Source: Sphingobacteriia bacterium (GTDB taxonomy: Bacteria; Bacteroidota; Bacteroidia; Bacteroidales; UBA7960). From it: 64,000 nt of DNA. A model generated the notes under the pieces. That model made no database searches. It saw only the letters and a program-made list of their open reading frames with translations, and had not been told where the DNA came from. Positions 16,664-33,042 of this stretch are shown here, piece by piece; the stretch's first letter is position 1; each line of letters begins with the position of its first letter. A program made the translations under genes and the position numbers. The stretch spans positions 51,150-115,149 of the forward strand of contig JAABRR010000015.1 in the NCBI GenBank assembly GCA_011390785.1. The letters run 5' to 3'.

Positions 16664-17131
16664 ATGACTAAAGTTGAAGAATTAGTAAAAAAGCAGGCCG
16701 AATTTCACGGTTACAAACGTGAAAGCCTTATGCCCATTCTTCAGGCCGTTGTTCGGTCAGAGAGGTTTCTCTCAGAGGAAGCCATGGTAGCCATAGCCAA
16801 AGAACTTGATATCAGCACTGCTGATGTATATGGTACTGCCTCCTTTTACACTTTCATGGACACCAAACCCCGGGGTAAAAATATCATCAGGGTTTGTAAA
16901 ACCATAACCTGCCATATGAAAGGTAAAGATGGTGTAATTGAAGCTTTGGAAGATACATTAAAAATCAAGCTTGGCGACACAACACCTGATGGGAAGTTTA
17001 GTCTGTTGCAGGCCAATTGCCTGGGATGGTGTCATAAAGGTCCGGTAATGCTTATTAACGACGAAGTGTATCCGGAGTTAACACCACAGTCTGCTGTTGA
17101 AATTATTCAGAAATACCTCAAGCAGAAGTAA
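16664..17131 (+). CDS. NuoE/HydC-like [2Fe-2S] thioredoxin-fold subunit (operon 1)
   Basis: Cys ligands 'VCKTITCHM' and 'ANCLGWCHKGPVM'. 'ASFYTFM' is typical of the NuoE family. Confidence 0.85.
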   Translation: MTKVEELVKKQAEFHGYKRESLMPILQAVVRSERFLSEEAMVAIAKELDISTADVYGTASFYTFMDTKPRGKNIIRVCKTITCHMKGKDGVIEALEDTLKIKLGDTTPDGKFSLLQANCLGWCHKGPVMLINDEVYPELTPQSAVEIIQKYLKQK

Positions 17132-17170
17132 TCATTTTGTATTGTTTTATTTTTCTAAAGCACAGTTATT

Positions 17171-18328
17171 ATGGATAACAAAATAAAAAAGGTTGACCTT
17201 ATTTTCGAAAATGTTGATTATCTCGAAGTTTTGGAGCGCTCTTTTAAACGCAGCCAGGATGAGATAATTCTTGATATAATTGATTCTGGCTTAAGGGGAA
17301 GGGGAGGAGCCGGATTTCCAACAGGATTAAAATGGAAATTTGCAAAGAATGAAGAAGCAGAGCAAAAATATGTAATATGTAATGCCGATGAGGGCGAACC
17401 GGGCACATTTAAAGACCGGGAAATTCTTACTCAGGTACCCGATAAAGTTCTGGCTGGTATGGCTCTTTGCGGAAAAGCTACAGGAGCCAATGAAGGATAT
17501 ATATATCTTAGGGGTGAATATAATTTCCTTTTGCCCAGTCTCCTTTCTTCTATAGAAAAATTTCATGATCAGTTAAAACAACTTAATTTTGATTTTACCA
17601 TTCATATAAAATCAGGCAGTGGTGCTTATGTATGTGGAGAAGAAACAGCCCTGATGGAGTCTATGGAAGGTAAACGTGGTGAACCAAGAAATAAACCTCC
17701 ATTTCCTACTACGGCTGGTTACCTGGGGCAACCAACATCTATCAATAATGTGGAAACACTTGTTTTTGCTCTGATGATAGCAAAGGAAGGGCCGACTAAA
17801 TTCAAAGAAATGGGTACATTCGACTCTCGCGGGTCTAAAGTATTTTCTGTTTCGGGCGATACTCCAAAGGCTGGGATCTATGAGCTTGAACTTGGAATGA
17901 GCCTTGAAGATTTTGTAAATGAATTTGGCGATGGTGATACAAAAGCTGTTCAGATTGGAGGAGCCTCCGGATTTTGTGTGGCCCGCAAGCATTTTAAAGA
18001 AACTGTAATTGGTTTCGAAGGGATTCCAACCGGCGGTTCTATGATGCTCTTTAACAGCACCCGATCTATGTTTAATATATTGAATGACTATCTTGAATTC
18101 TTTGAAGAAGAATCCTGCGGACAGTGCACCCCCTGTAGGGTGGGCTGCCAGCAATTACTTAAAGGAATTGAAGCAGTTAAAAGAGGAATTAAACCACCAA
18201 GTTATCTGGATGAATTGCAAAAGCTTTCTGAAACCATGAAGCTTGCATCGAAATGTGGTTTGGGCCAATCTGCTCCCAATCCTTTTAATTCAATTATTAA
18301 TAATTTCAGGGAGGAAATAATCTATTAA
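17171..18328 (+). CDS. NuoF/HydB-like flavoprotein subunit, minimal form (no N-terminal [2Fe-2S] domain, no C-terminal 2x[4Fe-4S] domain)
   Basis: 'GRGGAGFPTGLKWKF' (FMN), 'CNADEGEPGTFKDR', 'GSGAYVCGEETALMES' (NADH), and 'ESCGQCTPCRVG...CGLGQSAPNP' (N3-type 4Fe-4S). It is 385 aa, against 597 aa for the paralogue at 26331. Confidence 0.85.
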   Translation: MDNKIKKVDLIFENVDYLEVLERSFKRSQDEIILDIIDSGLRGRGGAGFPTGLKWKFAKNEEAEQKYVICNADEGEPGTFKDREILTQVPDKVLAGMALCGKATGANEGYIYLRGEYNFLLPSLLSSIEKFHDQLKQLNFDFTIHIKSGSGAYVCGEETALMESMEGKRGEPRNKPPFPTTAGYLGQPTSINNVETLVFALMIAKEGPTKFKEMGTFDSRGSKVFSVSGDTPKAGIYELELGMSLEDFVNEFGDGDTKAVQIGGASGFCVARKHFKETVIGFEGIPTGGSMMLFNSTRSMFNILNDYLEFFEEESCGQCTPCRVGCQQLLKGIEAVKRGIKPPSYLDELQKLSETMKLASKCGLGQSAPNPFNSIINNFREEIIY

Positions 18329-18408
18329 TATTCCCCTGTAATATATTTTAATAATAAAAATTAAGTAGAAGTAATACTTTTCTTCGTAACATTTTAAAGG
18401 AAATAAAA

Positions 18409-20190
18409 ATGAGCCCTTACAAAGTATCTCTTAAAATAAATAATTTATCAGTGTCTGTAGATGAAGGCACTACCATTCTGGAAGCAGCCCGCAAACTGAA
18501 TTTTAAGATTCCAACCTTATGCCACCATGATGACCTGTGCGTTGCAGGCAATTGTCGTGTATGTGTAGTTGAGCAGGTTGGTAACCGTGTTCTGCCGGCA
18601 TCTTGCGCAACTCCTGTATCTGAAGGAATGGAAATTCTTACCAATAGCATGAAGGTAAGACAGGCCCGTAAACATATTATTGAATTGCTACTTTCTGAAC
18701 ATAATGCTGAATGTACCATTTGCTATAAAAATGGCAATTGTGAATTGCAGGAATTGTCAAACGAATACAGAACAGGAAACCGTATGTTTCTTGATGTTCT
18801 AAAGAAATCTGCGGTTGATATTTCTTCACCGTCAATAGAAAAAGACGATTCAAAATGTATCCGCTGTCAGCGATGTGTCAGAACATGTTCCCAGCTGCAG
18901 GCTGTAAGTGCCCTTGGTGTTATCAACAAGGGAAAAGATATGAAAATATCTACCTTCCTTAATAAGCCTATGAACGATGTAGTTTGTACCAACTGCGGAC
19001 AGTGCGTAAACCGTTGCCCCACCGCTGCCCTGGTTGAAAGAAATTATATCGATCAGGTATTTGATGCCATTTACGATCCGAAAAAATTTGTGGTTGTTCA
19101 AACAGCCCCGGCCACAAGGGTGGCAATCAGTGAAGAGTTTGGGATGGGACCCAACCGGTCTACCGGAAAAATGGTGGCAGCATTGCGCCGTCTGGGATTC
19201 GATAAAGTACTCGACACCGATTTTACTGCCGACCTCACCATTATGGAAGAAGGCACAGAACTATTGACCCGCCTTAAAGAAGCTTTGGTTGATGGCAAAA
19301 ATGTTGCACTGCCAATGATGACCAGCTGCTCTCCCGGTTGGATTAAATTTCAGGAACATATATTCCCGGAATTACTGGATAATCTATCAACCTGCAAATC
19401 ACCACAGCAAATGTTTGGCCCCCTGGCAAAAACATACTACGCAGAAAAGATCAATAAAAATCCTGCCGATATGGTTGTAGTATCTATTATGCCATGTACA
19501 GCTAAAAAATATGAAGCCGACCGGCCCGAAATGCGAGGAAGCGGCTATAAAGATGTTGATTTTGTGCTTACTACACGCGAAATGGGTATGATGATTAAAC
19601 AAGCTGGTATCGATTTTGAAAAGCTTAGCGACGAGAAATACGATAGTATTCTGGGAGAGTCTAGTGGTGCTGCAGTGATTTTTGGAAACACCGGCGGTGT
19701 TATGGAAGCTGCTATACGCACTGCCTATGAAATTGTTACAGGACGAGAAGTTCCTTTCACCAACCTGAATATAAAGCCTGTAAGAGGCATGGAAGGTATC
19801 AAGGAAGCATCTGTTAAGATTAAGGATGTGAAACCTGAGTGGAGTTTCCTTGAAGGTGTGGAACTTAAGGTAGCCATAGCACATGGTTTATCTAATGCAA
19901 AAGAACTGATGACCAGTGTTAAAAACGGCACTGCCAATTATCATTTCATTGAAGTGATGGGCTGTCCGGGAGGTTGCATTGGTGGTGGTGGCCAACCTAT
20001 TCCTACCAACATGGAAATTCGTAAGAAGAGAGCCGCTGCCATTTACGAAGAAGATGAGAAAATGACCATCCGTAAGTCGCACGAAAATCCCGAAGTGCAG
20101 GAAGTTTATGCATCTTTCCTTCACAAACCCCTTGGACATCGTTCTCACGATCTGCTTCATACTCATTATACTGCTAAAAAGCGTTATTAA
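18409..20190 (+). CDS. [FeFe]-hydrogenase catalytic subunit, M3-type architecture, L1 motif variant TSCSP
   Basis: N-terminal [2Fe-2S] region 'CHHDDLCVAGNCRVC'. 'HNAECTICYKNGNC'. Two 4Fe-4S motifs, 'CIRCQRCVRTC' and 'CTNCGQCVNRCP'. H-cluster motifs 'MMTSCSPGW', 'MPCTAKKYE' and 'EVMGCPGGCIGGGGQP'. Confidence 0.92.
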   Translation: MSPYKVSLKINNLSVSVDEGTTILEAARKLNFKIPTLCHHDDLCVAGNCRVCVVEQVGNRVLPASCATPVSEGMEILTNSMKVRQARKHIIELLLSEHNAECTICYKNGNCELQELSNEYRTGNRMFLDVLKKSAVDISSPSIEKDDSKCIRCQRCVRTCSQLQAVSALGVINKGKDMKISTFLNKPMNDVVCTNCGQCVNRCPTAALVERNYIDQVFDAIYDPKKFVVVQTAPATRVAISEEFGMGPNRSTGKMVAALRRLGFDKVLDTDFTADLTIMEEGTELLTRLKEALVDGKNVALPMMTSCSPGWIKFQEHIFPELLDNLSTCKSPQQMFGPLAKTYYAEKINKNPADMVVVSIMPCTAKKYEADRPEMRGSGYKDVDFVLTTREMGMMIKQAGIDFEKLSDEKYDSILGESSGAAVIFGNTGGVMEAAIRTAYEIVTGREVPFTNLNIKPVRGMEGIKEASVKIKDVKPEWSFLEGVELKVAIAHGLSNAKELMTSVKNGTANYHFIEVMGCPGGCIGGGGQPIPTNMEIRKKRAAAIYEEDEKMTIRKSHENPEVQEVYASFLHKPLGHRSHDLLHTHYTAKKRY

Positions 20191-20209
20191 GATTCTTCTT
20201 TTATTCAAA

Positions 20210-20248
20210 TTTTTAACCGGGGCATAATGGCCCCGGTTAAAAATTTTG
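20210..20248 (+). terminator. strong rho-independent terminator ending hydrogenase operon 1
   Basis: 'tttttaaccggggc' and 'gccccggttaaaaa' form a perfect 14-bp stem with a 6-nt loop, followed by 'ttttg'. Confidence 0.8.
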
Positions 20249-20560: not shown

Positions 20561-20593
20561 CTTCATTTGGGGTGTAATTAAATATTGGTGGTT

Positions 20594-21244
20594 ATGAGAA
20601 TAAAATCCGGAAACAACACAAATGCTTTGAACCAGATTCCCGAGCCTACCTTAAGGCGTTTGCCAGGTTATCTGAGTTTTTTAAAATCATTAAAGATCAA
20701 TGCTGTAGAATATGTCTCAAGCAGTCAGATAGCAGCCAATTTTAAAATGGATTCTACCTTGGTAACCAAGGATCTTGCTTACACAGGAATAAAAGGACGA
20801 ACAAAAATTGGATACAATGTAGATAGTCTGATCAATACCATTATTGCCTTTCTTGATTTTAATACACATGAAAAGGCATTTCTTTTTGGAGTGGGCAACC
20901 TCGGGAAGGCATTGATAAAATATCAGGGATTACGAAGCTATGGATTAGATATAGTGGCAGGCTTTGATATTGATTCGTCTGTAACCAACCAGATACTTAA
21001 TGGTATTAAAATTTACCCTATAGATGAGTTTCGCGATCTTTCGCGCAAAACAGATGTTAGGCTGGGCATCATAACCACCCCTGATGCCAAAGCCCAGGAA
21101 ATAGCCGACCTTATGGTTGCATGGGGTATAAAGGGAATCTGGAATTTTACCCCACAAACCATTAAAGTGCCTGATAATATTGTAGTAGAAAACACTTCGA
21201 TATACTCTGATCTGGCTGTTTTGCTCAATCGGCTCAACAATTAG
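20594..21244 (+). CDS. rex: redox-sensing transcriptional repressor Rex
   Basis: 'IPEPTLRRLPGYLSFL' winged-helix N-terminus, 'SSSQIAANF', Rossmann 'FGVGNLGKAL', and 'GIWNFTP'. The TTG at 20585 is an alternative start. Confidence 0.9.
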   Translation: MRIKSGNNTNALNQIPEPTLRRLPGYLSFLKSLKINAVEYVSSSQIAANFKMDSTLVTKDLAYTGIKGRTKIGYNVDSLINTIIAFLDFNTHEKAFLFGVGNLGKALIKYQGLRSYGLDIVAGFDIDSSVTNQILNGIKIYPIDEFRDLSRKTDVRLGIITTPDAKAQEIADLMVAWGIKGIWNFTPQTIKVPDNIVVENTSIYSDLAVLLNRLNN

Positions 21245-21385
21245 CAGGAGCCGAAACTCTCACTTTTAAACAATCCTTATTTATAATCATTATTTATTGG
21301 GAAACTTTTTATTTGCCCTTTCTTTGTGAAGTCATTGCTGGTTGTAACGAGCATCGATCTTTTTTTTTCGTGCAGATAATTTAAG

Positions 21386-21403
21386 TTGTGAAAAAAATAA
21401 CAA
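21386..21403. promoter_or_regulatory. candidate Rex operator (TTGTGAAAAAAATAACAA)
   Basis: It is an 18-mer compared with the Rex consensus TTGTGAA-N4-TTCACAA. The left half matches 7 of 7. The right half matches 5 of 7, or 6 of 7 against the clostridial TTAACAA half. It lies 29 nt upstream of the -7 box at 21432. Confidence 0.45.
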
Positions 21404-21431
21404 TATAATTGTTCGTTTACTCCTTTACGCT

Positions 21432-21439
21432 TATCTTTG
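21432..21439 (+). promoter_or_regulatory. candidate -7 box (TATCTTTG) of the sensory cassette
   Basis: TAnnTTTG match about 85 nt upstream of ATG 21525. The octamer is identical to the one at 25686. Confidence 0.3.
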
Positions 21440-21524
21440 CGGTATTAAACAGGAAGATATGGTCTGTTTAGTTTAATAATTGGCAAGTCCTTTCAATATT
21501 ATAACTCTCTTTTTTAACATCAGC

Positions 21525-21872
21525 ATGATGACCATAAAACAAATTTCCGAATTATTAGAAGCTACAATAGTTTGCGGCGAAGACCGTAAAGAGCATAAAA
21601 TTGAAATGGCATTTGCTTCAGATCTGATGAGTGATGTGCTAACGCTCAGTGATAATAATGTAATGCTTATTACAGGTTTATCTAATATGCAGGCGTTGCG
21701 TACCGCTGAAATGGCAGAAATACCTGCCATTATATTTGCCAGGAATAAAAAAATATCAGAAGAAATGAAAGAACTGGCTATTGAGAATGATATCATCGTT
21801 TTGGAGTGCAGATTTTCAGTTTTTAAGGTTTCTGGGATGTTATTTAATAATGGAATTTCCCCCGTTTTTTAA
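21525..21872 (+). CDS. DRTGG domain protein (copy 1)
   Basis: 'ASDLMSDVLTL...VMLITGLSNMQALRTAEMAEIPAIIF...' resembles the small DRTGG-type proteins found next to hydrogenase genes, and also resembles the paralogue at 23804. The ORF is open from 21480. Confidence 0.55.
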   Translation: MMTIKQISELLEATIVCGEDRKEHKIEMAFASDLMSDVLTLSDNNVMLITGLSNMQALRTAEMAEIPAIIFARNKKISEEMKELAIENDIIVLECRFSVFKVSGMLFNNGISPVF

Positions 21873-21883
21873 TTTTGTATTGT

Positions 21884-22300
21884 ATGCATTTCGAATACCA
21901 GATTGAAGGTGGAAATTTTACCCGTGCCGGTTTTGCTTCCAGCGAAATAAAAAAAATGATGAAGCAGCTGAATGTTGATATGGGTGTTATTAAGCGTACG
22001 GTTGTATCTACCTACGAAGCCGAAGTAAATGTAGTTGCTCATGCATTTAGCGGTACAATCTATGTTGATCTTGATGAAGAAAAAATTGTAATACAGTTGC
22101 AGGATCAAGGTCCGGGAATACCAGATATTGATCAGGCAATGAAAGAGGGTTTCTCTACTGCAAGTAGTGCTGTGCGCGAAATGGGCTTTGGAGCAGGTAT
22201 GGGTTTACCCAATATTAAGCGTAATGCCGACGATTTTCAAATTACCAGCGAGGTAAATAAAGGCACTAACGTAAAAATAACAATGTTCTTCAATAAGTAA
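21884..22300 (+). CDS. GHKL-type ATP-binding protein, anti-sigma-factor-kinase-like (HATPase_c_2 type)
   Basis: 'YEAEVNVVAHA' (N-box region), 'LQDQGPGIPD' (G1, DxGxG) and 'GFGAGMGLPNI' (G2). It has no HisKA/DHp domain. The TTG at 21875 is an alternative start, 2 nt after the upstream stop. Confidence 0.65.
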   Translation: MHFEYQIEGGNFTRAGFASSEIKKMMKQLNVDMGVIKRTVVSTYEAEVNVVAHAFSGTIYVDLDEEKIVIQLQDQGPGIPDIDQAMKEGFSTASSAVREMGFGAGMGLPNIKRNADDFQITSEVNKGTNVKITMFFNK

Positions 22301-22403
22301 TTATCTAAAAGGCCGGTTTTTATTTACCTTTTCAAAAACGACTAAATCAATAATCAATTTCACTCAACCATATCTCAACATATATTAAATCAGCTTTTAA
22401 GCC

Positions 22404-23783
22404 ATGGTAATGGACACAAAGTATTTTCATCACGCATTAAAGTTCCGTAAGGATGTTTGTATTGGTTGCTCGCATTGTATGAGTGTTTGCCCTACATATG
22501 CTATCCGTATTCGTGACGGAAAGGCCGATTTGCTTGATAATTATTGTGTTGATTGTGGAAGATGCTACAGAGCCTGTCCTGTAGGTGCAATTATAGTTGA
22601 ACAAGACGATTTAAGACAGATTTTCAACTACAGCAAAAGGGTAGCTATTATTCCTTCCGTTTTAATGGGGCAGTTTCCTTCATCAGTATCCATAACACAG
22701 GTAACCAGTGTTTTAATGGAACTTGGTTTTACCCATGTCTATGAAGTAGAACACGGTGTAGAAGTGCTTAAATCCCAGATGAGCGAATATATTTCAGAAA
22801 ACACTGACATCCGGCCTTTAATTTCAACATTTTGTCCGGCTATTGTGAGGTTGATACAGGTTCGGTTTCCAAATCTTACCCCTAATCTGATTCTTCTAAA
22901 GTCTCCGCTTGATATCGCTGCAGCTTATTACAACAAGAAACTTATTGATGAAGGAAATAAGGCAGAAGAGATAGGTATTTTTTATATTACCCCATGTGCT
23001 GCAAAAATTGCCGCTGTGAAAAGTCCGGTAGGACAGAAAAATTCTCCTATTACCGGGGTTATCAATATGGATTATATTTTTAATAAAGTTTATACCGCTG
23101 TTAAGCAGGGTTTTCCAGGTAAAGACTCTCGGATATTCCCATCACGCGACCCCTTAAAATCTTCCGGTATTACATGGCCTGCAACAAATGGCGAAGCCGC
23201 ACACATGCCCGGCAGAACCCTCGCAATAGACGAGATCAATAATGTTATAGAATTTCTTGAACAACTTGAAAATGAAGAAAATCAGGATATTGACTTTCTT
23301 GAGTTACGCGCTTGCGATGAAAGCTGTGCAGGCGGAATTCTTACCAGCAGCAATCGGTTTTATACTGTGGAAAGGTTAAAAAAGAGAGCGCAACGCTCTG
23401 AAAATAAAGAAAAGGACAATAACTACCGGTATGTAAATCCCGGACCTATCATTGAATATAAAGAATTTTTAAAGCAGAATCTGGCCATTAAAAAAATTCA
23501 GCCCCGATCCATGGAAAAGCTTGATGAAAATATTTCTTTGGCGATGAAAAAAATGGAACAGGTTCATGAGATATTAGACAATCTTCCATATGTAGATTGT
23601 GGTATTTGTGGCTCTCCCACCTGCAGTGTTTTGGCTGAAGACATTGTGCAGGGGCATGCAAATATTAATCAATGCATCTACGTTCAAAAAAACCTTGAAC
23701 AAAAAGGTGATCTAACTTCCTTGCAATCAATGGAAATCCTCAAAAAAATTTGGGGTAAAGATAAATTTGAAGATAAGCAATAA
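22404..23783 (+). CDS. [FeFe]-hydrogenase-like sensory protein: 2x[4Fe-4S] ferredoxin domain + degenerate H-cluster domain + C-terminal 4-Cys Fe-S domain; no PAS domain
   Basis: 'CIGCSHCMSVCP' and 'CVDCGRCYRACP'. The H-domain motifs are altered: 'ISTFCPAIV' (L1), 'ITPCAAKIAA' (L2) and 'ELRACDESCAGG' (L3), with all four cluster-ligating Cys retained. The C-terminus has 'DCGICGSPTCSVLAEDIVQGHANINQC'. Confidence 0.8.
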   Translation: MVMDTKYFHHALKFRKDVCIGCSHCMSVCPTYAIRIRDGKADLLDNYCVDCGRCYRACPVGAIIVEQDDLRQIFNYSKRVAIIPSVLMGQFPSSVSITQVTSVLMELGFTHVYEVEHGVEVLKSQMSEYISENTDIRPLISTFCPAIVRLIQVRFPNLTPNLILLKSPLDIAAAYYNKKLIDEGNKAEEIGIFYITPCAAKIAAVKSPVGQKNSPITGVINMDYIFNKVYTAVKQGFPGKDSRIFPSRDPLKSSGITWPATNGEAAHMPGRTLAIDEINNVIEFLEQLENEENQDIDFLELRACDESCAGGILTSSNRFYTVERLKKRAQRSENKEKDNNYRYVNPGPIIEYKEFLKQNLAIKKIQPRSMEKLDENISLAMKKMEQVHEILDNLPYVDCGICGSPTCSVLAEDIVQGHANINQCIYVQKNLEQKGDLTSLQSMEILKKIWGKDKFEDKQ

Positions 23784-23803
23784 ACTTAATCAATTAATGA
23801 AAG

Positions 23804-24136
23804 ATGACAGTAAACGAAATTAAAGAAAGACTCTCTCTTACAATTTTGGGCGGACAAAAAGGATTGAATAACCAGGTTTCTGGTGGCTATGTCTCAGACT
23901 TGCTTAGTGATGTAATGGGAAATGCTGATGCAGCCCAGGTATGGATAACCTTGCAAACCCATAAAAATGTTATGGCTATAGCATCGTTAAAAGACCTCGC
24001 AGCTGTTATTTTGATAAACAACCATCAGCCCGACGAAGATATGCTGGGGCAAAGTAATGAAGAAGGAATTCCTGTTTTGGCAACATCGCTTAGTGCTTTC
24101 GAAGTAACCGGCAAGCTCTACGAACTTTTAAAATAG
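23804..24136 (+). CDS. DRTGG domain protein (copy 2)
   Basis: 'GGYVSDLLSDVMGNADAAQVWITLQTHKNVMAIASLKDLAAVILIN...EEGIPVLATSLSAFEVTGKLYELL'. Confidence 0.6.
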   Translation: MTVNEIKERLSLTILGGQKGLNNQVSGGYVSDLLSDVMGNADAAQVWITLQTHKNVMAIASLKDLAAVILINNHQPDEDMLGQSNEEGIPVLATSLSAFEVTGKLYELLK

Positions 24137-24140
24137 CAGT

Positions 24141-24884
24141 ATGCAACAGTTTTTGGCCGATCTACATATCCATACTTTGCTTTCGCCATGTGGCGATCTG
24201 GAGATGAGCCCTGCCAATATTGTTGCCTCCGCTCAGAAGAAAAACCTTGATATTATTGGCATTGCTGACCATAATTCAACCAAACACGGGCCCCTGATTA
24301 AAAAACTTGCCGCAGCCTGCGGAATATTTACCCTTTGCGGTGCCGAAGTAACAACAAGGGAAGAAACTCATTGCCTGGCGTTCTTTGAGAATAATACATC
24401 ACTCAGTGAGTTTCAGGAATATCTGGATGCTCACCTGCCTAATGTTAAAAACGATCCTAAGTACTTTGGTTATCAGGTGGTTGTTGATGAACAGGAAATG
24501 ATTTTAGAAGAAGTGGAGAAGCTGCTTATTTCTGCCCTTAACCAATCCATTGATCAGGTTGAAAGAAAAGTACATTCGTTGGGTGGATTATTCATTCCTG
24601 CCCATATCGATCGGGCCAAGTTTAGTCTGGTAAGCCAGTTGGGATTTGTTCCACCAGGACTTAATGCCGATGCCCTTGAAATATCATTTAAAACCACCAA
24701 AGATCAAATGCTGAAACAGTTTCCCTATCTTAAAAATTTCAGCTTTATCCGTAGTTCCGATGCCCATTTTCCTGATCAGTTAGGTAATTATTCTACCATC
24801 TTTGAAATGGAAGAAGTAAATTTCGACGAAATTAAAAAAGCTTTAAAAGGTGTTGATGGCAGGAAGGTGATTATACAGGATTAA
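24141..24884 (+). CDS. PHP (polymerase/histidinol-phosphatase) family metal-dependent phosphoesterase
   Basis: 'ADLHIHTLLSPCGD', 'IGIADHNS', 'IPAHIDR' and 'SSDAH' are PHP metal-ligand motifs. Confidence 0.8.
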   Translation: MQQFLADLHIHTLLSPCGDLEMSPANIVASAQKKNLDIIGIADHNSTKHGPLIKKLAAACGIFTLCGAEVTTREETHCLAFFENNTSLSEFQEYLDAHLPNVKNDPKYFGYQVVVDEQEMILEEVEKLLISALNQSIDQVERKVHSLGGLFIPAHIDRAKFSLVSQLGFVPPGLNADALEISFKTTKDQMLKQFPYLKNFSFIRSSDAHFPDQLGNYSTIFEMEEVNFDEIKKALKGVDGRKVIIQD

Positions 24885-24969
24885 AAGTACATGTTTGATC
24901 AGGAATGCCGCTTACAGAATTATTTTCCAAAACCGTAAATCAACCACAATCCATTAACCATAATACTAA

Positions 24970-25509
24970 ATGAAAGAACTTTCACTACATGTACTTGATG
25001 TTATTCAAAATTCGGTGAGTGCCAATGCTGCCAATATTCATCTCATCATACATGAAAATTCATCTGCTGAAACCCTTACCATTATTATTGAAGATGACGG
25101 AAAAGGCATGGCTCCCGAAGTTCTGGGAAAAGTAACCGATCCCTTCTTTACATCGCGAACAACCAGAAAAGTAGGATTAGGAATACCCCTATTTAAGCAA
25201 AATGCTGAAATATCAGGTGGTTCCTTTAAAATAACTTCTCAATTGGGCAAGGGTACACGTGTAAAAGCCGTGTTTGGCCTTTCGCACTTCGATCGGCCTC
25301 CACTTGGCGATATTGCGGGTGTTGTTATGTTAATGGTAAGCTCAAATCTACATATCAATTTCTTTTATCAACACAAGATAGATCAGAAAATGTATGAGTT
25401 TAACACACCCGAAATAAAGGAGGTGCTTGAAGATCTGCCCCTGAATGACCCTGCGGTTATTCGTCACTTAAAAGAGATGATAAATGAGAATTTAAAAGAT
25501 TTAAGGTAG
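24970..25509 (+). CDS. GHKL-type ATP-binding protein (histidine-kinase-like ATPase, no DHp or sensor domain)
   Basis: 'LHVLDVIQNSVSANA' (N box), 'IEDDGKGM' (G1), 'DPFFTSRTTRKVGLGIPLFKQ' (G2 region) and 'GKGTRV'. Confidence 0.7.
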   Translation: MKELSLHVLDVIQNSVSANAANIHLIIHENSSAETLTIIIEDDGKGMAPEVLGKVTDPFFTSRTTRKVGLGIPLFKQNAEISGGSFKITSQLGKGTRVKAVFGLSHFDRPPLGDIAGVVMLMVSSNLHINFFYQHKIDQKMYEFNTPEIKEVLEDLPLNDPAVIRHLKEMINENLKDLR

Positions 25510-25659: not shown

Positions 25660-25693
25660 TTTGTTTTAATTAAGCCGGAAAACGCTATCTTTG
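25660..25693 (+). promoter_or_regulatory. candidate promoter of hydrogenase operon 2 (-33 TTTG at 25660-25663, -7 TATCTTTG at 25686-25693)
   Basis: It matches the Bacteroidota TTTG / TAnnTTTG architecture with a 22-nt spacer. It implies a leader of about 215 nt before ATG 25914. Confidence 0.35.
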
Positions 25694-25708
25694 TACAATA
25701 ATTCACAA
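25691..25708. promoter_or_regulatory. candidate Rex operator (TTGTACAATAATTCACAA) overlapping the -7 box
   Basis: It is an 18-mer compared with TTGTGAA-N4-TTCACAA. The left half matches 5 of 7 and the right half 7 of 7. It overlaps the 3' end of the TATCTTTG box. Confidence 0.45.
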
Positions 25709-25913: not shown

Positions 25914-26312
25914 ATGACAAAAATTAAATCGTTAGCAGATTTAAAAAAAATGAAGAGCGATCTTCAATCACAAATTTCTATCAGACAAAAGAGTGAGAAC
26001 CCAGAGGGAAGAACACTCATCAGAATAGGAATGGGTACCAGTGGAATTGCATCTGGTGCAAAACAGGTTATGGAATTTCTAATGGATGAGTTGGAAAAAC
26101 GTAATGTGGATGCCATTGTAACACAGGTTGGCGATATGGGTTACAGTTATGCTGATCCTACTGTTGAGGTTACTGTTCCGGGCAAAGACCCATTGGTTTT
26201 TGGTGACGTTACCATCAAAAAAGCTGATGACATCATTGAAAAGTATATTAAAAACGGAGAATTGCTCGATGGCATCATTCCGGTAAATTATGAAACCATT
26301 GATAAAAAATAA
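25914..26312 (+). CDS. HndB-like thioredoxin-fold protein with no cysteine (cannot bind a [2Fe-2S] cluster)
   Basis: 'IRIGMGTSGIASGA...VTQVGDMGYSYADPTVEV' aligns with the (V)C(M)GTCGIAAGA ... GC.G.C..EP pattern of HndB/HydB-N domains, but every Cys position is replaced. The 132-aa protein contains no Cys. Confidence 0.6.
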   Translation: MTKIKSLADLKKMKSDLQSQISIRQKSENPEGRTLIRIGMGTSGIASGAKQVMEFLMDELEKRNVDAIVTQVGDMGYSYADPTVEVTVPGKDPLVFGDVTIKKADDIIEKYIKNGELLDGIIPVNYETIDKK

Positions 26313-26330
26313 TTAAGGAGGAATTTACGA

Positions 26331-28124
26331 ATGGCAAAATACAAAATGCATATGCTGGTTTGTGGGGGTACGGGTTGTCGTGCTTCTGCCAGCGACATGC
26401 TTTATGAAAGTTTAAAAAAAGAAGTTCAGGATAACAATCTGGAAAATGAAGTTCAGGTTGTTACTACCGGTTGCTTTGGGTTTTGCGAAAAGGGCCCCAT
26501 TGTTAAAATGATTCCCGACAATACTTTTTATGTGAGTGTTGAACCTAAAGATGCCAAAGAATTGGTGGCCGAGCATGCGCTAAAAGGTCGTAAGGTAAAT
26601 CGTCTTTTGTACGTGGACCCCACCAATAAGGAGCAAATATCAGACAGTAAGCATATGGGTTTTTACAAAAAACAAATCCGTATAGCTTTGCGCAATTGTG
26701 GTCTTATAAACCCTGAAAATATTGAAGAATATCTGGCTGCTGATGGCTACGAAGCTATGGGCAAGGTTTTGCTTGAAATGACACCTGAAGAGGCCATCAA
26801 AGTAGTTTTAGATTCCGGACTTCGCGGTAGGGGTGGTGGTGGTTTTCCCACAGGACTAAAATGGCAGATTGCCAGTAAAAACGAAGCAGACCAAAAATAT
26901 GTAGTTTGTAATGCAGACGAAGGCGACCCCGGTGCATTTATGGATCGTTCTATCCTTGAAGGCGACCCCCACACTGTACTCGAAGCAATGGTAATCAACG
27001 GATATTGTATTGGTGCTACCAAAGGCCTTATTTACATCAGAGCTGAATATCCACTTGCAATTCAAAGGTTGAAAATCGCTATTGGGCAGGCCCGCGAATT
27101 TGGCCTGTTAGGGACAGACATTCTTGGCTCTGGTTTTGATTTCGATGTTGAGATACGTTATGGTGCCGGAGCTTTTGTTTGTGGTGAAGAAACAGCACTT
27201 ATACATTCTATGGAAGGCGAAAGGGGAGAACCTACTTTTAAACCACCATTCCCCGCTCAAAGCGGTTACCTTGGTAAACCTACCAACGTAAACAATGTGG
27301 AAACGTACGCCAACATTCCTGTAATTATAAACAAAGGTGCTGAGTGGTTTTCTTCTATCGGAACAGAAAAATCAAAAGGTACCAAAGTTTTTGCACTGGC
27401 CGGAAAGATCAATAATGTAGGCCTTATTGAAGTGCCCATGGGTATTACCCTGCGCGAAGTGATCTATGAAATTGGTGGTGGCATAAAAGGCGGTAAAAAG
27501 TTTAAAGCTGTTCAAACCGGTGGCCCATCAGGAGGTTGCTTAACAGAAAAGCATCTCGATATTCCTATCGACTTCGATAACCTGATTGCTGCCGGTTCTA
27601 TGATGGGCTCAGGTGGTATGATCGTAATGGACGAAGATGATTGTATGGTGGCTGTTGCCAAATTCTATCTCGAATTTACTGTTGAAGAGTCCTGCGGAAA
27701 ATGTTCTCCGTGTCGTGTTGGTAACAAACGTCTTCATGAACAACTCGACCTAATTACAAAAGGGAAAGCGACAATGGAGGATCTTGACAAGCTGAAAAAC
27801 CTCAGTAATGTAATTAAAGATACTTCGCTTTGTGGTTTGGGACAAACATCGCCCAACCCCGTTCTTTCTACCATGGAAAATTTCTATGATGAATATGTGG
27901 CTCACGTTACCGATCATAGATGTCCTTCTGGTGTATGTAAGGATCTTATTCGCTACGAAGTAATTGCCGAAAACTGCGTGGGTTGTACTGCTTGTGCCCG
28001 TAATTGTCCGGTTAACTGTATTTCTGGTGAGCGCAAGCAGGTGCACCTGATCGACCAGGTTTTGTGCATCAAATGTGGTGCGTGCCTCGAGAAATGTAAG
28101 TTTAATGCAATTGCAGTGATTTAA
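26331..28124 (+). CDS. hydB: NuoF/HydB-type flavoprotein subunit, full-length (N-terminal [2Fe-2S], FMN/NADH, [4Fe-4S], C-terminal 2x[4Fe-4S])
   Basis: 'VCGGTGCRAS...TGCFGFCEKGP', 'GRGGGGFPTGLKW', 'CNADEGDPGAFMDR', 'GAGAFVCGEETAL', 'ESCGKCSPCRVG', 'CVGCTACARNCP' and 'CIKCGACLEKC'. Confidence 0.92.
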   Translation: MAKYKMHMLVCGGTGCRASASDMLYESLKKEVQDNNLENEVQVVTTGCFGFCEKGPIVKMIPDNTFYVSVEPKDAKELVAEHALKGRKVNRLLYVDPTNKEQISDSKHMGFYKKQIRIALRNCGLINPENIEEYLAADGYEAMGKVLLEMTPEEAIKVVLDSGLRGRGGGGFPTGLKWQIASKNEADQKYVVCNADEGDPGAFMDRSILEGDPHTVLEAMVINGYCIGATKGLIYIRAEYPLAIQRLKIAIGQAREFGLLGTDILGSGFDFDVEIRYGAGAFVCGEETALIHSMEGERGEPTFKPPFPAQSGYLGKPTNVNNVETYANIPVIINKGAEWFSSIGTEKSKGTKVFALAGKINNVGLIEVPMGITLREVIYEIGGGIKGGKKFKAVQTGGPSGGCLTEKHLDIPIDFDNLIAAGSMMGSGGMIVMDEDDCMVAVAKFYLEFTVEESCGKCSPCRVGNKRLHEQLDLITKGKATMEDLDKLKNLSNVIKDTSLCGLGQTSPNPVLSTMENFYDEYVAHVTDHRCPSGVCKDLIRYEVIAENCVGCTACARNCPVNCISGERKQVHLIDQVLCIKCGACLEKCKFNAIAVI

Positions 28125-28149
28125 TTAACTAATAACAGGAATTAATATA

Positions 28150-29922
28150 ATGGAACTTATCAAATTAACTATAGATAACAGAACTGTTGAGGTTGAAAAA
28201 GGTACCACTATTTTTCATGCAGCAAAAAAACTGGGTATCGAAATTCCCACGCTTTGCTATATGAACCTTAAGGACCTCAATATAGAGCACAAGCCCGGCG
28301 GTTGTCGTATTTGTGTGGTAGAAGTAGAAGGACGCCGTAACCTGGCACCCTCCTGTGCTACCGAATGTATGGAAGGAATGGTAGTGAAAACACATACCGT
28401 TCGTGTTCTCAACGCCAGAAGAACAGTATTGGAACTGATTATTTCTGATCATCCGTTCGACTGCCTTATCTGCGCCAAATCAGGCAATTGTGACCTACAG
28501 TCATTGGCCATCAAACTGGGTGTAAGAGATATTCCTTTCCAGGGCGAAAAGTCAACCTACAAGCCCGACTTTTCACCAGCCATTATCCGCGATATGGACA
28601 AATGTATCATGTGCCGCAGATGCGAAACCATGTGCAACGATTTTCAAACTGTTGGCGTGTTATCAGGCATCAACCGTGGTTTCGAAGCAGTTGTTGCACC
28701 CGCTTTTGAGCGCGACCTCGATCATAGCGAATGTACGTATTGCGGACAATGTGTGGCAGTATGCCCCACAGGCGCACTTACCGAAGTTGATCATACCAAA
28801 AATGTAATCGCTGCACTTTCTGATTCTAAGAAAACAGTTGTTGTACAAACTGCTCCCGCCGTTCGTGCTGCCCTGGGTGAAGAGTTTGGCCTTGAAGCTG
28901 GTACTTTGGTAACAGGTAAAATGGTTGCTGCATTACGTCAGTTAGGTTTTGACTATGTTTTCGATACCGATTTTGCTGCCGACCTTACCATCATGGAAGA
29001 AGGAACTGAACTTCTGGACAGACTTACCCGTCATTTGGGTGGTGATAAGGAAGTTAAGCTTCCCATCCTCACCTCCTGCTGCCCTGGTTGGGTTAATTTC
29101 TTTGAATACAATTACCCTGATATGATGGATGTACCATCTACAGCCCGCTCACCACAGCAAATGTTTGGTGCCATAGCCAAAACATATTTTGCCGAAAAAA
29201 TTAATGTGAAGCGCGAAGATATGGTTGTAGTTTCTATTATGCCATGTGTTGCTAAAAAATATGAATGTACCCGCGAAGAGTTCGCAACTGATGGCAACCC
29301 TGATGTTGATTTCTCCATTTCTACCCGCGAGCTGGCCCATTTCATCAAATCTGCCAACATCAATTTTAATGCATTGCCCGATGAAGATTTCGACAAACCT
29401 CTTGGCGAATCAACCGGTGCTGCAGTAATTTTTGGAACAACCGGCGGTGTTATTGAAGCAGCCGCCCGTACCGCTTACGAACTACACACAGGAAAAACGC
29501 TGGAGAAGGTTGATTTTGAAGCTCTCCGTGGCTTTGATGGAATCAGAAGCGCCAGCGTTGATTTTGATGGTGTTGATATTAAAATAGGTATAGCGCATGG
29601 GCTGGGCAATGCCCGCAAAATGCTCGATGATGTTAAAGCCGGCAGAAGCGAGTTTCATGCTATCGAAATTATGGCCTGCCCCGGTGGTTGCATTGGTGGT
29701 GGCGGTCAGCCATTGCACCATGGTGATTCATCAGTACTTAGAGCACGAGCCAAAGCAATATACTCGGAAGATGAGTCTAAAGTTTTGCGAAAATCACACG
29801 AAAACCCTTCCATTATTAAGCTTTACGAAGAATACCTGGGCAAACCCGGAAGTGAAAAAGCACACCACTTACTCCATACTCACTATTTTGATAAAAAATC
29901 AAAGCAGGTTTTATTGGATTAA
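28150..29922 (+). CDS. hydA: [FeFe]-hydrogenase catalytic subunit HydA, canonical H-cluster motifs
   Basis: 'ILTSCCPGW' (L1), 'MPCVAKKYE' (L2) and 'EIMACPGGCIGGGGQP' (L3). N-terminal [2Fe-2S], 'HPFDCLICAKSGNC', 'CIMCRRCETMC' and 'CTYCGQCVAVCP'. Confidence 0.95.
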   Translation: MELIKLTIDNRTVEVEKGTTIFHAAKKLGIEIPTLCYMNLKDLNIEHKPGGCRICVVEVEGRRNLAPSCATECMEGMVVKTHTVRVLNARRTVLELIISDHPFDCLICAKSGNCDLQSLAIKLGVRDIPFQGEKSTYKPDFSPAIIRDMDKCIMCRRCETMCNDFQTVGVLSGINRGFEAVVAPAFERDLDHSECTYCGQCVAVCPTGALTEVDHTKNVIAALSDSKKTVVVQTAPAVRAALGEEFGLEAGTLVTGKMVAALRQLGFDYVFDTDFAADLTIMEEGTELLDRLTRHLGGDKEVKLPILTSCCPGWVNFFEYNYPDMMDVPSTARSPQQMFGAIAKTYFAEKINVKREDMVVVSIMPCVAKKYECTREEFATDGNPDVDFSISTRELAHFIKSANINFNALPDEDFDKPLGESTGAAVIFGTTGGVIEAAARTAYELHTGKTLEKVDFEALRGFDGIRSASVDFDGVDIKIGIAHGLGNARKMLDDVKAGRSEFHAIEIMACPGGCIGGGGQPLHHGDSSVLRARAKAIYSEDESKVLRKSHENPSIIKLYEEYLGKPGSEKAHHLLHTHYFDKKSKQVLLD

Positions 29923-29940
29923 TTTTTATGGCAGGATAAT

Positions 29941-29968
29941 CCCCGGGAAATATGGAAATTTTCCGGGG
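29941..29968 (+). promoter_or_regulatory. intra-operon stem-loop between hydA and hydC (operon 2)
   Basis: 'ccccgggaaa' and 'ttttccgggg' form a 10-bp stem with one G-U pair and an 8-nt loop. No T-tract follows. It lies in the 93-nt hydA-hydC gap. Confidence 0.3.
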
Positions 29969-30015
29969 TCAAAGCCAGTAAAATACTTATTTCGTAACAA
30001 AAAAATATTTATATA

Positions 30016-30507
30016 ATGACATCAGTAAAACTAAAATTAAAAGAAAGTGATGTGCAGAAACTGAAAGAAGTAGCTAAATCTTTCAATAATGAAGCTGGTG
30101 AGCTGATCAATGTTTTGCACAAAGCTCAGGAAATATTCGGCTATTTGCCTGCTGAGGTGCAGGAAGTAGTAGCTCAGGAACTAAATGTTCCGGTGGCCAA
30201 GGTCTATGGGGTTGTAACCTTTTATTCCTTCTTTACTATGTTGCCCCGTGGGCGTTACCCTATTTCTATATGCACGGGTACGGCATGTTACGTAAGAGGT
30301 GCTGAAAAAGTACTTGATGAGTTCAAACGGATTCTTAAAATTCCTGTTGGTGAAACAACCTCAGATGGTAAATTCTCTATTACCTGTCTCAGATGCGTGG
30401 GCGCCTGTGGTTTAGCTCCTGTTGTGATGGTGGGCGATAAAACCTATGGCCGAGTTACAACCGACGGCGTTAAGGATATCCTGAAAGAATACGACACTGA
30501 AGATTAG
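30016..30507 (+). CDS. hydC: NuoE/HydC-type [2Fe-2S] subunit (operon 2)
   Basis: 'ICTGTACYVRG' and 'LRCVGACGLAPVVM' are the Cys ligands. 'VTFYSFF'. Confidence 0.9.
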   Translation: MTSVKLKLKESDVQKLKEVAKSFNNEAGELINVLHKAQEIFGYLPAEVQEVVAQELNVPVAKVYGVVTFYSFFTMLPRGRYPISICTGTACYVRGAEKVLDEFKRILKIPVGETTSDGKFSITCLRCVGACGLAPVVMVGDKTYGRVTTDGVKDILKEYDTED

Positions 30508-30531
30508 TCTTTGTTTCGTATAACTCCCATT

Positions 30532-30567
30532 AAAAAAAAGGGCAGTTTAACGACTGTCCTTTTTTTT
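30532..30567. terminator. bidirectional rho-independent terminator after operon 2
   Basis: An A8 run, the stem 'gggcagt'/'actgtcc' (7 bp, one G-U pair), then a T-run. It lies between convergent hydC (+) and the DUF5777-like gene (-). Confidence 0.65.
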
Positions 30568-30712
30568 GCTATTTTGTTGAAACATATCTTCGATAACCAG
30601 CATGTTACATTCTTATAAATACATTCCTTATTTATATTATATATTTAAAACCAAGCATTAAAAAATCAGAGTGCCATTTTTAGCATCCAATTTTAAATGA
30701 TTTTCTGTTTTC

Positions 30713-31603
30713 TCAAAGCTTAGGTTTTTTTATAGTGAATACCCGTACAATATTAAATCCAAAATAAATATCCCCTTTTAGCCAGTCGCCACGGGTCTCG
30801 GTAATGAAAGCACGTTCAAACATCGGTTGTGCATTGGTAAAGTGGAGTTGAAATACATGTCCGCCGGTTTCAAGGTCAAATCCAATAGAAAGCATATCTT
30901 TAAAACTTTCAGCGGTTGATGGGGTAAGTACCTGATAATATTCTGCATTAAAGGTTACCCGGTTGGTAAGTCTTAATCTTCCGCCGTATCCCAGAGCATA
31001 GATATCATTCGGATCCGCAATTTTCTCCACAAGATTTTTATGAACAAGGGTAGGGGTTAACTGAAACGAAATGCTGTTGGAAAATTTTCTGGCAATTAGA
31101 ATCTGATAAGTATATGATAATCGTGATGAGAAGTAATTTTCTCTTTCCGGATATCTCCATTTAAGGGAGTTTAGGTAGATGCCAGAAAATACAGATAGAG
31201 AGATAGGCATTTGTTTAGCCCCTGAGCTTTGTCGCAAAATTTTGTATTTGGCAAATCCATCAATTGTTTTTTCGAATGAACTTCTGCCTAATGAAACCGC
31301 AAGTCGATCGTTAATTCCATACTCAAAACCCATCCTAATCGTTGATTGATCAAGGCCCCATAGGTTGTAAGCTCCTTCATTTAGTCGTCCAAAGTGGTGG
31401 CTAATGATAAATTTCAATTCCCCATTGGGTGGATTTTCTATAGATTGACCGTTTACAATACGCGAAGTTTTGAACGTTGCATAGGCATATTCGGTAACAG
31501 GCTCCTGTTCTTCTTCAAGCATATCAAGCAAACCTTGTGATTGAATGCCTGGTAAAAGAAGAAAACAGAAGATTGAGATAAAATAAATACGTCTGGTTAG
31601 CAT
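30713..31603 (-). CDS. outer-membrane beta-barrel protein (DUF5777-like)
   Basis: It has a signal peptide, alternating beta-strand pattern and a C-terminal aromatic residue. It sits in the YceI/heme-motif operon context typical of this family. Confidence 0.45.
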   Translation of the reverse strand: MLTRRIYFISIFCFLLLPGIQSQGLLDMLEEEQEPVTEYAYATFKTSRIVNGQSIENPPNGELKFIISHHFGRLNEGAYNLWGLDQSTIRMGFEYGINDRLAVSLGRSSFEKTIDGFAKYKILRQSSGAKQMPISLSVFSGIYLNSLKWRYPERENYFSSRLSYTYQILIARKFSNSISFQLTPTLVHKNLVEKIADPNDIYALGYGGRLRLTNRVTFNAEYYQVLTPSTAESFKDMLSIGFDLETGGHVFQLHFTNAQPMFERAFITETRGDWLKGDIYFGFNIVRVFTIKKPKL

Positions 31604-31605
31604 AA

Positions 31606-32154: not shown

Positions 32155-32180
32155 GTCTGATTTATTTTTATTGGTTTTCT

Positions 32181-32615: not shown

Positions 32616-32672
32616 GATAACAAAATTTAGTTTTACTAAACACGATAATAGAAGCAACTTACTTAATTTATC

Positions 32673-33041: not shown

Positions 33042-33042
33042 T

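Follow-up and report, generated by a model that had tools for sequence, protein, structure and literature searches.

Results

Organization of the locus

We analyzed a stretch of 64,000 nucleotides, hereafter the window, from the Bacteroidales genome assembly GCA_011390785.1 (contig JAABRR010000015.1, positions 51,150 to 115,149 of the forward strand). Six co-directional genes on the forward strand of this window encode, in order, a DRTGG protein, a GHKL ATPase, a hydrogenase-like iron–sulfur protein, a second DRTGG protein, a PHP protein and a second GHKL ATPase. A rex gene lies 5′ of this cassette, and two trimeric [FeFe]-hydrogenase operons flank rex and the cassette together. We find that the region is a Bacteroidales copy of a widespread group D HydS regulatory cluster that accompanies electron-bifurcating HydABC(D). 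An earlier note, made from the sequence alone, had singled out the cassette as a candidate H2 or redox signaling system. Its open reading frames (ORFs) are all present on the forward strand in our ORF map, and every domain that it named was recovered by Pfam and NCBIfam profile searches, on which the annotation given here also rests.

The first gene, DRTGG1 (21525–21872), encodes a single-domain protein of about 114 residues that matches PF07085 with 28.1 bits. It is followed by GHKL1 (21884–22300), with HATPase_c and HATPase_c_2 matches, and by the gene for the 459-residue hydrogenase-like protein (22404–23783), which carries two Fer4 domains, a weak Fe_hyd_lg_C match and a C-terminal PF04060 "FeS" domain. 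DRTGG2 (23804–24136) scores 24.9 bits against PF07085, for which the cut-off is 25.2 bits; despite this score its family membership is secure because it is paralogous to DRTGG1 and its synteny is conserved. The last two genes are PHP (24141–24884), whose 247-residue product has PHP and PHP_C domains, and GHKL2 (24970–25509), with a HATPase_c match. The genes are separated by 11, 103, 20, 4 and 85 nucleotides, with 280 nucleotides between rex and DRTGG1 and 404 nucleotides between GHKL2 and the hydD-like gene that opens the second hydrogenase operon. This arrangement is far beyond chance, since the same order recurs in dozens of genomes from three phyla.

The putative HydS-type sensor

The hydrogenase-like protein has an N-terminal pair of [4Fe-4S] cluster domains (the Fer4 matches, at residues 14–66), an H-domain and a C-terminal four-cysteine cluster (PF04060, residues 394–426). 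Its Fe_hyd_lg_C score of 78.6 bits compares with about 325 bits for catalytic HydA proteins. In our alignment, which spans 54 diverse relatives, Cys144, Cys198, Cys304 and Cys308, the ligands of the H-cluster, are invariant or at least 90% conserved, and the accessory-cluster cysteines are invariant, both in the N-terminal part (Cys19, 25, 29, 48, 51, 54 and 58) and in the C-terminal part (Cys399, 402, 407 and 424). The characteristic motifs read STFCP, TPCAAK and ELRACDESCAGG. The proton-relay cysteine, Cys299, is missing (STFCP versus TSCCP), and Met353 is replaced by threonine (TPCAAK versus MPCxxK). We made these residue correspondences by eye on the motifs, with class criteria taken from PMC8163306, which sets out the hallmarks of group D (M2e) with TamHydS of Thermoanaerobacter mathranii as the prototype. 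No PAS domain was matched in Pfam or NCBIfam, and the chain ends 33 residues past the FeS domain.

TamHydS has the same domain order, likewise without a PAS domain, and shares the loss of the proton-relay cysteine; the residue in place of Met353 is serine in TamHydS and threonine in the window sensor. In tblastn comparisons, the sensor matches TamHydS with 34% identity over residues 8–265 and C-terminal segments (E = 1e-56), whereas the HydA proteins of the window do so with 24% identity over a partial stretch only. The TamHydS coding sequence came from the supplement of PMC13104023, the text of which contains machine-reading errors, so the identity figure is approximate. On the basis of its architecture, cysteines, motifs and match to TamHydS, the protein is a putative sensory [FeFe] hydrogenase of group D (M2e), the HydS or TamHydS type, and not of the PAS-bearing group C. 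The connection to sensory [FeFe] hydrogenases drawn by the earlier note therefore stands, but its comparison with the PAS-containing group C type (HydS/HfsB) does not, as the protein has no PAS domain and is TamHydS-like.

Group D proteins have been proposed as sensors since about 2010, the date from which the position of HydS upstream of hydABC in Firmicutes has also been noted, and spectroscopic work has followed since 2020. It is likewise already in the literature that group D genes precede bifurcating hydABC and that kinase-like genes lie near or between them. TamHydS itself has been characterized biochemically and displays slow turnover, a high affinity for H2 and an H2-induced structural change; according to the 2026 TamHydS paper, its interaction partners are still to be identified.

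Distribution and conserved gene neighborhood

More than 4600 homologues of the sensor were found at E < 1e-10, the closest of which belong to Bacteroidales and to Bacteroidota metagenome-assembled genomes; at the level of clusters formed at 50% identity, 1799 reach the same threshold. With one genome scanned per species, at least 594 species genomes contain a relative of the sensor, and the best 80 of these at least 594 genomes are mostly Bacteroidales, followed by Spirochaetota and Bacillota. The surprise that the earlier note expressed at the occurrence of the module in a Bacteroidota-like genome is thus unwarranted, since Bacteroidales dominate the closest homologues.

We surveyed the gene neighborhoods by scoring six-frame ORFs of 83 loci with hidden Markov models (HMMs) built from the window proteins and first-round matches. 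Among the 77 loci with enough upstream DNA, GHKL1 adjoins the sensor in 76, and DRTGG1 lies upstream of it in 76. DRTGG2 and PHP are present in 54 of the 69 loci with enough downstream DNA and GHKL2 in 49 of these 69, always in the company of hydD and hydABC. A hydA or hydB gene lies no more than 10 kb away in 38/52 loci.

The cassette splits in two: a near-universal triad of DRTGG1, GHKL1 and HydS (module 1), and an accessory set of DRTGG2, PHP and GHKL2 (module 2) tied to hydD-hydB-hydA. The triad stands alone in all seven Spirochaetota loci and in several Bacteroidales loci. In the triad-only loci that we scanned, the neighboring genes are unrelated (an M16 peptidase, transporters and a TonB-dependent receptor) and no output gene was found. 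Module 2 usually follows module 1, although it precedes it in three loci (L026, L028 and L034), and in L072 it is missing, with hydD-hydB-hydA-hydC coming straight after HydS. The Bacillota loci have the order DRTGG1-GHKL1-HydS-DRTGG2-PHP-hydC-GHKL2-hydD-hydB-hydA, in which GHKL2 sits between hydC and hydD inside a five-gene structural operon; this order agrees with the published Tmath_0862 plus Tmath_0865–0869 and Athe_1292 plus Athe_1295–1299. Gene junctions can be very tight, with distances of −1, 0, 11, 1 and −4 nucleotides in L001, where the frames abut or overlap.

In one further locus (L052, 11384–16100, reverse strand), a group-C-like set comprising a monomeric [FeFe] hydrogenase, a SpoIIE/PP2C phosphatase and a second HydS-like gene is convergent to a DRTGG1-GHKL1-HydS triad; both putative sensor types can therefore be neighbors.

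Gene fusions

Fusions were sought by length, Pfam and our own HMMs among the best 150 of the 1799 sensor clusters, each given by its 50%-identity representative. Ten of the 150 representatives are longer than usual and fused. GHKL1 is joined to HydS in P0184 (607 residues) and DRTGG1 in P0216 and P0223, while DRTGG2 is appended to the C terminus of HydS in P0142, P0144, P0208, P0214, P0224, P0230 and P0232. Eight of these ten recur at equal or nearly equal length in other members of their cluster, in several cases on many contigs; the clusters of P0223 and P0208 have one member each. The 533-residue form of HydS::DRTGG2 belongs to a cluster of 80 members, and single members occur on up to 27 contigs. 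As to the fusion loci examined, L086 has the standard Bacillota order, L084 lacks PHP, and L085 is rearranged with no hydABC nearby. The recurrence of length on independent contigs and the recognizable cluster contexts show that the fusions are not assembly artefacts.

Because DRTGG1, GHKL1 and DRTGG2 all occur fused to HydS, these three proteins are likely its direct partners. Taken together with the synteny, the fusions suggest a single working complex of HydS with the DRTGG proteins and GHKL1, for which they are the strongest evidence in our analysis.

The same data bear on the possibility that HydS is a low-activity catalytic, ferredoxin-linked hydrogenase whose small neighbors are co-located for unrelated or historical reasons. 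It is true that group D is described as "functionally undefined" in a 2024 survey, that the gene of this group is entered as "Fd-linked" in one comparative study and that TamHydS turns over H2. Near-obligate synteny over three phyla and repeated fusions nevertheless rule out chance co-location, and the loss of the proton-relay cysteine, together with the published kinetics, argues against bulk catalysis. We regard this explanation as highly improbable.

Two of the fusion loci have further features. In L084 (8001–16915), a gene downstream of GHKL1::HydS encodes a HydB fused to a GltD-like NAD(P)H oxidoreductase (1010 residues). In L085 (5941–9955), from the isolate "bacterium 210820-DFI.6.37", the set reads GHKL1, DRTGG2-like, PHP, GHKL2, DRTGG1::HydS, HydD-like and comes directly after a V-type ATPase operon; the HydD-like gene therefore travels with the regulatory genes there.

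DRTGG and GHKL1 proteins

The AlphaFold2 model of DRTGG1 (pLDDT 90.7) superimposes on AF1212 (2ioj) with a TM score of 0.83 in Foldseek, and the fold also matches the DRTGG domain of the CBS-pyrophosphatase and the N-terminal domain of HPr kinase. We asked whether DRTGG might be a hidden STAS domain and rejected the idea: the model has no match other than DRTGG structures and the N-terminal domain of HPr kinase, and Pfam detects no STAS match in the cassette proteins. DRTGG1 contains an invariant loop, A-S-D-L-M-S-D-V-L, with the counterpart S-D-L-L-S-D-V-M in DRTGG2. The form common to both paralogues, (A/V)SDL(M/L)SDV(L/M), corresponds to the lowest-confidence part of the DRTGG1 model.

GHKL1 has its best PDB matches to SpoIIAB, the anti-sigma F factor (E = 1e-7, residues 15–132 of 138), and its best NCBIfam match is to spIIAB, at 61.6 bits (cut-off 135). 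The N, G1 and G2 boxes are conserved. These features point to a SpoIIAB/RsbW-like GHKL ATPase that is a putative Ser/Thr kinase.

PHP and GHKL2 proteins

The PHP protein retains the metal-ligand motifs of its family (HxH, DHN, E, H, H and D-x-H). Among solved structures, the PHP core of Endonuclease Q (EndoQ; E = 7.8e-11) is the closest to it; residues 7–245 align with EndoQ 6–233, with most of the similarity in the metal-binding motifs and the PHP_C segment. In NCBIfam and PADLOC, the top matches are to the PHP domains of two ATPases, TrlF and Ppl, and 3′,5′-bisphosphate nucleotidase and RNase RNM come next.

These relatives raise the possibility that module 2 acts on nucleic acid or a nucleotide, such that hyd mRNA, DNA or a nucleotide second messenger would be the substrate that PHP, acting with GHKL2, cleaves upon a signal from HydS, and control would operate on RNA or nucleotides. 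The pairing of a GHKL ATPase with a nuclease is known elsewhere, for instance in MutL, and the lack of a DNA-binding regulator in the conserved set would fit such an output. The EndoQ match itself limits this explanation, as its similarity falls mainly on the motifs and segment named above. EndoQ has zinc-finger and C-terminal helical domains in its C-terminal part, and the parts beyond the PHP core are absent here, given that the protein has 247 residues versus 400 in EndoQ, that the alignment stops at EndoQ residue 233 and that Pfam finds nothing in the protein besides PHP and PHP_C. Protein tyrosine phosphatases and histidinol phosphatases are likewise found among PHP enzymes. Moreover, module 2 is absent in L072 and L084 even though hydABC follows HydS in both. 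We consider a nucleic acid or nucleotide target improbable.

The matches to Ppl and TrlF also led us to consider an anti-phage defense island, which we rejected because of the synteny with hydrogenase genes and the weakness of the PADLOC result, a 30-bit match of the PHP core to Ppl alone; PADLOC returned nothing for the other six proteins scanned.

GHKL2 resembles the CA domain of histidine kinases in sequence and stands alone. In Foldseek searches with its AlphaFold2 model (pLDDT 91.5), the N-terminal ATPase domains of MutL, PMS2 and MLH1 rank level with kinase CA domains, and a conserved C-terminal extension of about 75 residues has no convincing structural match. Residues 105–114 (25282–25311), SHFDRPPLGD, are reminiscent of the histidine-kinase H-box SHELRTPL; D108, G113 and D114 are invariant in this motif whereas the histidine is not, and the motif sits in a loop of the model.

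The MutL-like matches are one reason to weigh a second explanation, in which the accessory proteins would be regulatory or assembly subunits: the GHKL proteins would serve as clamps or chaperones (Hsp90- or MutL-like) and the DRTGG proteins as dimerization scaffolds, gating or assembling HydS and HydABC(D) without phosphotransfer. The place of GHKL2 within the Bacillota structural operon agrees with this explanation, as do the solved DRTGG domains, found in the regulatory region of CBS-pyrophosphatase and in the HPr kinase N-terminal domain. No phospho-acceptor domain was found in the cassette, and the fusions indicate association but are silent on phosphotransfer. On the other hand, the sequence of GHKL1 is specifically like that of SpoIIAB, which is a kinase, and a conserved phosphoesterase with intact catalytic residues is hard to fit into a scheme of clamps alone. 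Triad-only operons lie far from any hydABC, and, as weak evidence, the published HydABC structures in our PDB search name no such subunits. On balance, a clamp or assembly role appears unlikely.

The flanking hydrogenase operons

Operon 2 (25914–30507, forward strand) comprises the hydD-like gene (25914–26312), hydB2 (26331–28124), hydA2 (28150–29922) and hydC2 (30016–30507). According to Pfam, HydA2 contains [2Fe-2S] and [4Fe-4S] domains and the H-domain; HydB2 contains the FMN/NADH site, an N-terminal 2Fe-2S domain and two C-terminal [4Fe-4S] domains; and HydC2 has a thioredoxin-like 2Fe-2S domain. Judged by this domain architecture, operon 2 is of the electron-bifurcating HydABC type (group A3). 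Its position downstream of the cassette is conserved across related loci. The HydD-like thioredoxin-fold protein lacks any cysteine, with S, D and S at the positions where 51 of 60 relatives have C, C and C; among the relatives compared, only L005 shares this pattern. The iron–sulfur cluster of HydD thus seems to have been lost in this lineage. A terminator with a 17-pair stem and a T-run (30531–30568, forward strand) closes the operon.

Operon 1 (16664–20190, forward strand), annotated with Pfam, consists of hydC1 (16664–17131), hydB1 (17171–18328) and hydA1 (18409–20190). Its HydB is a short, NuoF-like protein of 385 residues without the N-terminal 2Fe-2S and C-terminal 2x[4Fe-4S] domains of HydB2. 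The strong terminator that the earlier note placed after this operon is real, with a perfect 17-bp stem and a 6-nucleotide loop (20207–20246, forward strand; free energy −26.5 kcal/mol, z-score −6.1). The cassette is immediately preceded by an operon with short HydB in about 16 Bacteroidales loci, among them the window, L001, L004, L005, L008, L009, L011–L014, L016–L018, L020, L030 and L040.

Rex and its candidate operators

The rex ORF opens at a TTG at 20585, and its first ATG is at 20594. The gene (20594–21244, forward strand) encodes a protein with Put_DNA-bind_N and CoA_binding matches that scores 267.7 bits against the NCBIfam Rex family (NF003994; cut-off 130). Its domains are a winged helix and a Rossmann fold for NAD(H) binding, and the GxGxxG motif reads GVGNLG. 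Only two TTGT-N10-ACAA sites occur in the 64-kb window, one in each of the promoter regions of the cassette and operon 2. Rex-like operator 1, TTGTGAAAAAAATAACAA, lies at 21386–21403 and is followed 29 nucleotides downstream by a −7 motif of the Bacteroidetes type, TATCTTTG (21432–21439). Rex-like operator 2, TTGTACAATAATTCACAA, lies at 25691–25708 upstream of operon 2 and overlaps a second −7-type motif, TATCTTTG (25686–25693). These promoter motifs (TAnnTTTG) were picked out by eye. Sigma-70 promoter and terminator scans of the window were uninformative, the counts being equal to those in shuffled sequence; Bacteroidetes promoters are not of the sigma-70 type.

The related loci provide some support for a regulatory role of such sites. 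The density of TTGT-N10-ACAA is 0.38 per kb upstream of DRTGG1, 0.19 upstream of hydD and 1.87 upstream of hydC1, against a background of 0.045, and Rex-like boxes are found on the short-HydB operon in 9/13 loci. In L005, an 18-mer identical to operator 1 lies upstream of rex, and a TTGTTAATTAATTAACAA box lies upstream of hydD in the place equivalent to operator 2. Experiments in Caldicellulosiruptor bescii and Clostridium thermocellum have demonstrated Rex binding upstream of the homologous five-gene hyd operon, and Rex sites have been reported upstream of hfsABCD. The window has Rex and TTGT..ACAA palindromes in common with the C. bescii and C. thermocellum regulons, but here rex adjoins the cluster, and the sites are putative. 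Rex control of the cassette and operon 2 is thus a plausible prediction. As a core component of the module, Rex can be rejected: rex is found in 8/82 loci and is an occasional, lineage-specific neighbor.

Other genes in the window

On the reverse strand 3′ of operon 2 (30713–33747) are genes for a DUF5777 membrane beta-barrel, a YceI-like protein and a PSCyt1 cytochrome-c-domain protein, for which the related loci revealed no tie to the cassette. A Crp/Fnr-type regulator gene follows (33984–34676, reverse strand). The rhodopsin gene mentioned in the earlier note is present at 37307–38140 (forward strand; Bac_rhodopsin, 158 bits in Pfam), 7 kb from the two [FeFe]-hydrogenase operons, which suggests a fermentative Bacteroidales organism also able to use light.

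Discussion

We favor, with modest confidence, a model in which HydS is the H2-responsive subunit of an assembly with DRTGG1, GHKL1 and DRTGG2, GHKL1 serves as an ATP-dependent switch or kinase, PHP and GHKL2 form a reset or output module, and the output is probably post-translational. Module 1 would constitute the sensing core. That HydS would sense H2 follows from the TamHydS literature, and its membership of a single complex is argued for by synteny, by the overlapping or abutting frames in relatives and by the fusions. An H2-dependent state of HydS may alter the binding of GHKL1 or phosphorylation by it, with the Ser-rich loop of the DRTGG proteins, which is invariant and flexible, as the candidate target. 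Module 2 would act in resetting or output: PHP may remove the modification or cleave another phosphoester, and GHKL2 may couple the signal to the neighboring enzyme post-translationally rather than through DNA binding. A post-translational output is the more likely because the conserved set has no DNA-binding protein. Rex, acting through the two operator-like promoter sites, may in addition place the cassette and operon 2 under NADH/NAD+ control.

Several observations weigh against this model. With regard to sensing, H2 did not reduce the C-terminal cluster in the 2026 study of TamHydS. The triad-only genomes indicate that neither module 2 nor a neighboring hydABC is required for the core to act, and no output was identified in them. 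GHKL1 falls under the NCBIfam cut-offs of both SpoIIAB and RsbW, and STAS, the substrate known for kinases of the SpoIIAB type, has a fold unrelated to that of DRTGG. GHKL2 has neither a DHp domain nor a known acceptor, and it resembles in fold both MutL-type ATPases and the CA domains of kinases. For PHP, the closest solved structure is that of a DNA endonuclease, and the closest NCBIfam families are PHP domains of TrlF and Ppl instead of protein phosphatases. The scheme of the earlier note, with GHKL proteins phosphorylating DRTGG proteins and PHP undoing the modification, is accordingly a hypothesis. Rex control has its own difficulties: the sites at 21386 and 25691 each have two mismatches to the TTGTGAA-N4-TTCACAA consensus, the total of Rex-like sites in the window is no higher than chance, leaving their placement as the notable part, the strict site is found upstream of DRTGG1 in only 11/78 related loci, and the intergenic region upstream of operon 1 contains no Rex box at three or fewer mismatches. 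Finally, we found no phosphorylation, ATPase, H2-response or interaction data for the accessory proteins in the searchable literature, which agrees with the earlier note in that no function or mechanism for these genes was found in published work.

The closest known system is the cluster of TamHydS (Tmath_0862) and its counterparts in Thermoanaerobacter, Caldicellulosiruptor and C. thermocellum, located upstream of hydC-[GHKL]-hydD-hydB-hydA. It has the same neighbors in the same order (DRTGG, GHKL, HydS, DRTGG, PHP and GHKL, then HydD/B/A/C). The window copy differs in that it comes from Bacteroidales, GHKL2 precedes hydD, hydC is the last gene instead of the first, rex is inserted upstream, the HydD-like protein lacks cysteines and an extra short-HydB operon lies upstream.

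Group C (M2f) systems, which adjoin a Ser/Thr kinase and phosphatase, offer a broader parallel. The HydS/HfsB proteins of this group (Thermotoga maritima HydS, Ruminococcus albus HydS and Thermoanaerobacterium hfsABCD) also combine a sensor bearing an extra C-terminal [4Fe-4S] cluster with a position beside a hydrogenase operon. Group C sensors are associated with PAS domains and a PP2C (SpoIIE-type) phosphatase, whereas the window has neither and its partners are DRTGG, GHKL and PHP. The HoxBC-HoxJ-HoxA system of Cupriavidus necator, in which a slow, inhibitor-tolerant [NiFe] H2 sensor and a kinase-type ATPase control hydrogenase genes, embodies the same concept. Its metal center is unrelated, HoxJ is a histidine kinase with the complete PAS-DHp-CA architecture and the response regulator HoxA binds DNA; elements of the HoxJ and HoxA types are absent from the window cassette.

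The partner-switching systems SpoIIAA-SpoIIAB-sigmaF and RsbV-RsbW-sigmaB are alike in gene order, with a small protein of about 115 residues, a GHKL protein of about 140 residues and then the "target", and with a phosphoesterase nearby. The window differs in having the DRTGG fold in place of STAS, a hydrogenase in place of the sigma factor and PHP in place of PP2C. Neither a PP2C phosphatase nor a sigma-factor target was found in the six cassette proteins, the flanking genes scanned or the conserved neighborhood, and Pfam and NCBIfam detect neither HisKA nor Response_reg in the cassette, where GHKL2 is a lone CA-like domain. The six proteins have no DNA-binding, REC, STAS, PP2C, PAS or DHp domain at E ≤ 0.01, so that the earlier note was correct in finding the parts of neither a two-component nor a classical partner-switching system. 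In its boldest form, our model would describe a previously undescribed, ATP-dependent, partner-switch-like H2 signaling complex, with DRTGG, PHP and a hydrogenase standing in for STAS, PP2C and the sigma factor, that directly controls an electron-bifurcating hydrogenase post-translationally. This stronger version is tentative and, in our judgment, rather doubtful.

Both the cluster and the sensor class are already known, and the window copy is ordinary with respect to where the cluster is found. The dissection into two modules, together with the fusions, makes the signaling question more directly testable. Concrete partner candidates can now be named, with DRTGG1, GHKL1 and DRTGG2 as the direct ones and PHP and GHKL2 as a separable second module tied to HydD/HydABC. 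If the model is correct, the cluster would represent a kind of signaling distinct from both two-component systems and classical partner switching. In guts, sediments and digesters, the amount of H2 released by fermenting anaerobes is set by electron-bifurcating [FeFe] hydrogenases, and such a system, if confirmed, would also provide a handle for engineering H2 or ethanol yields.

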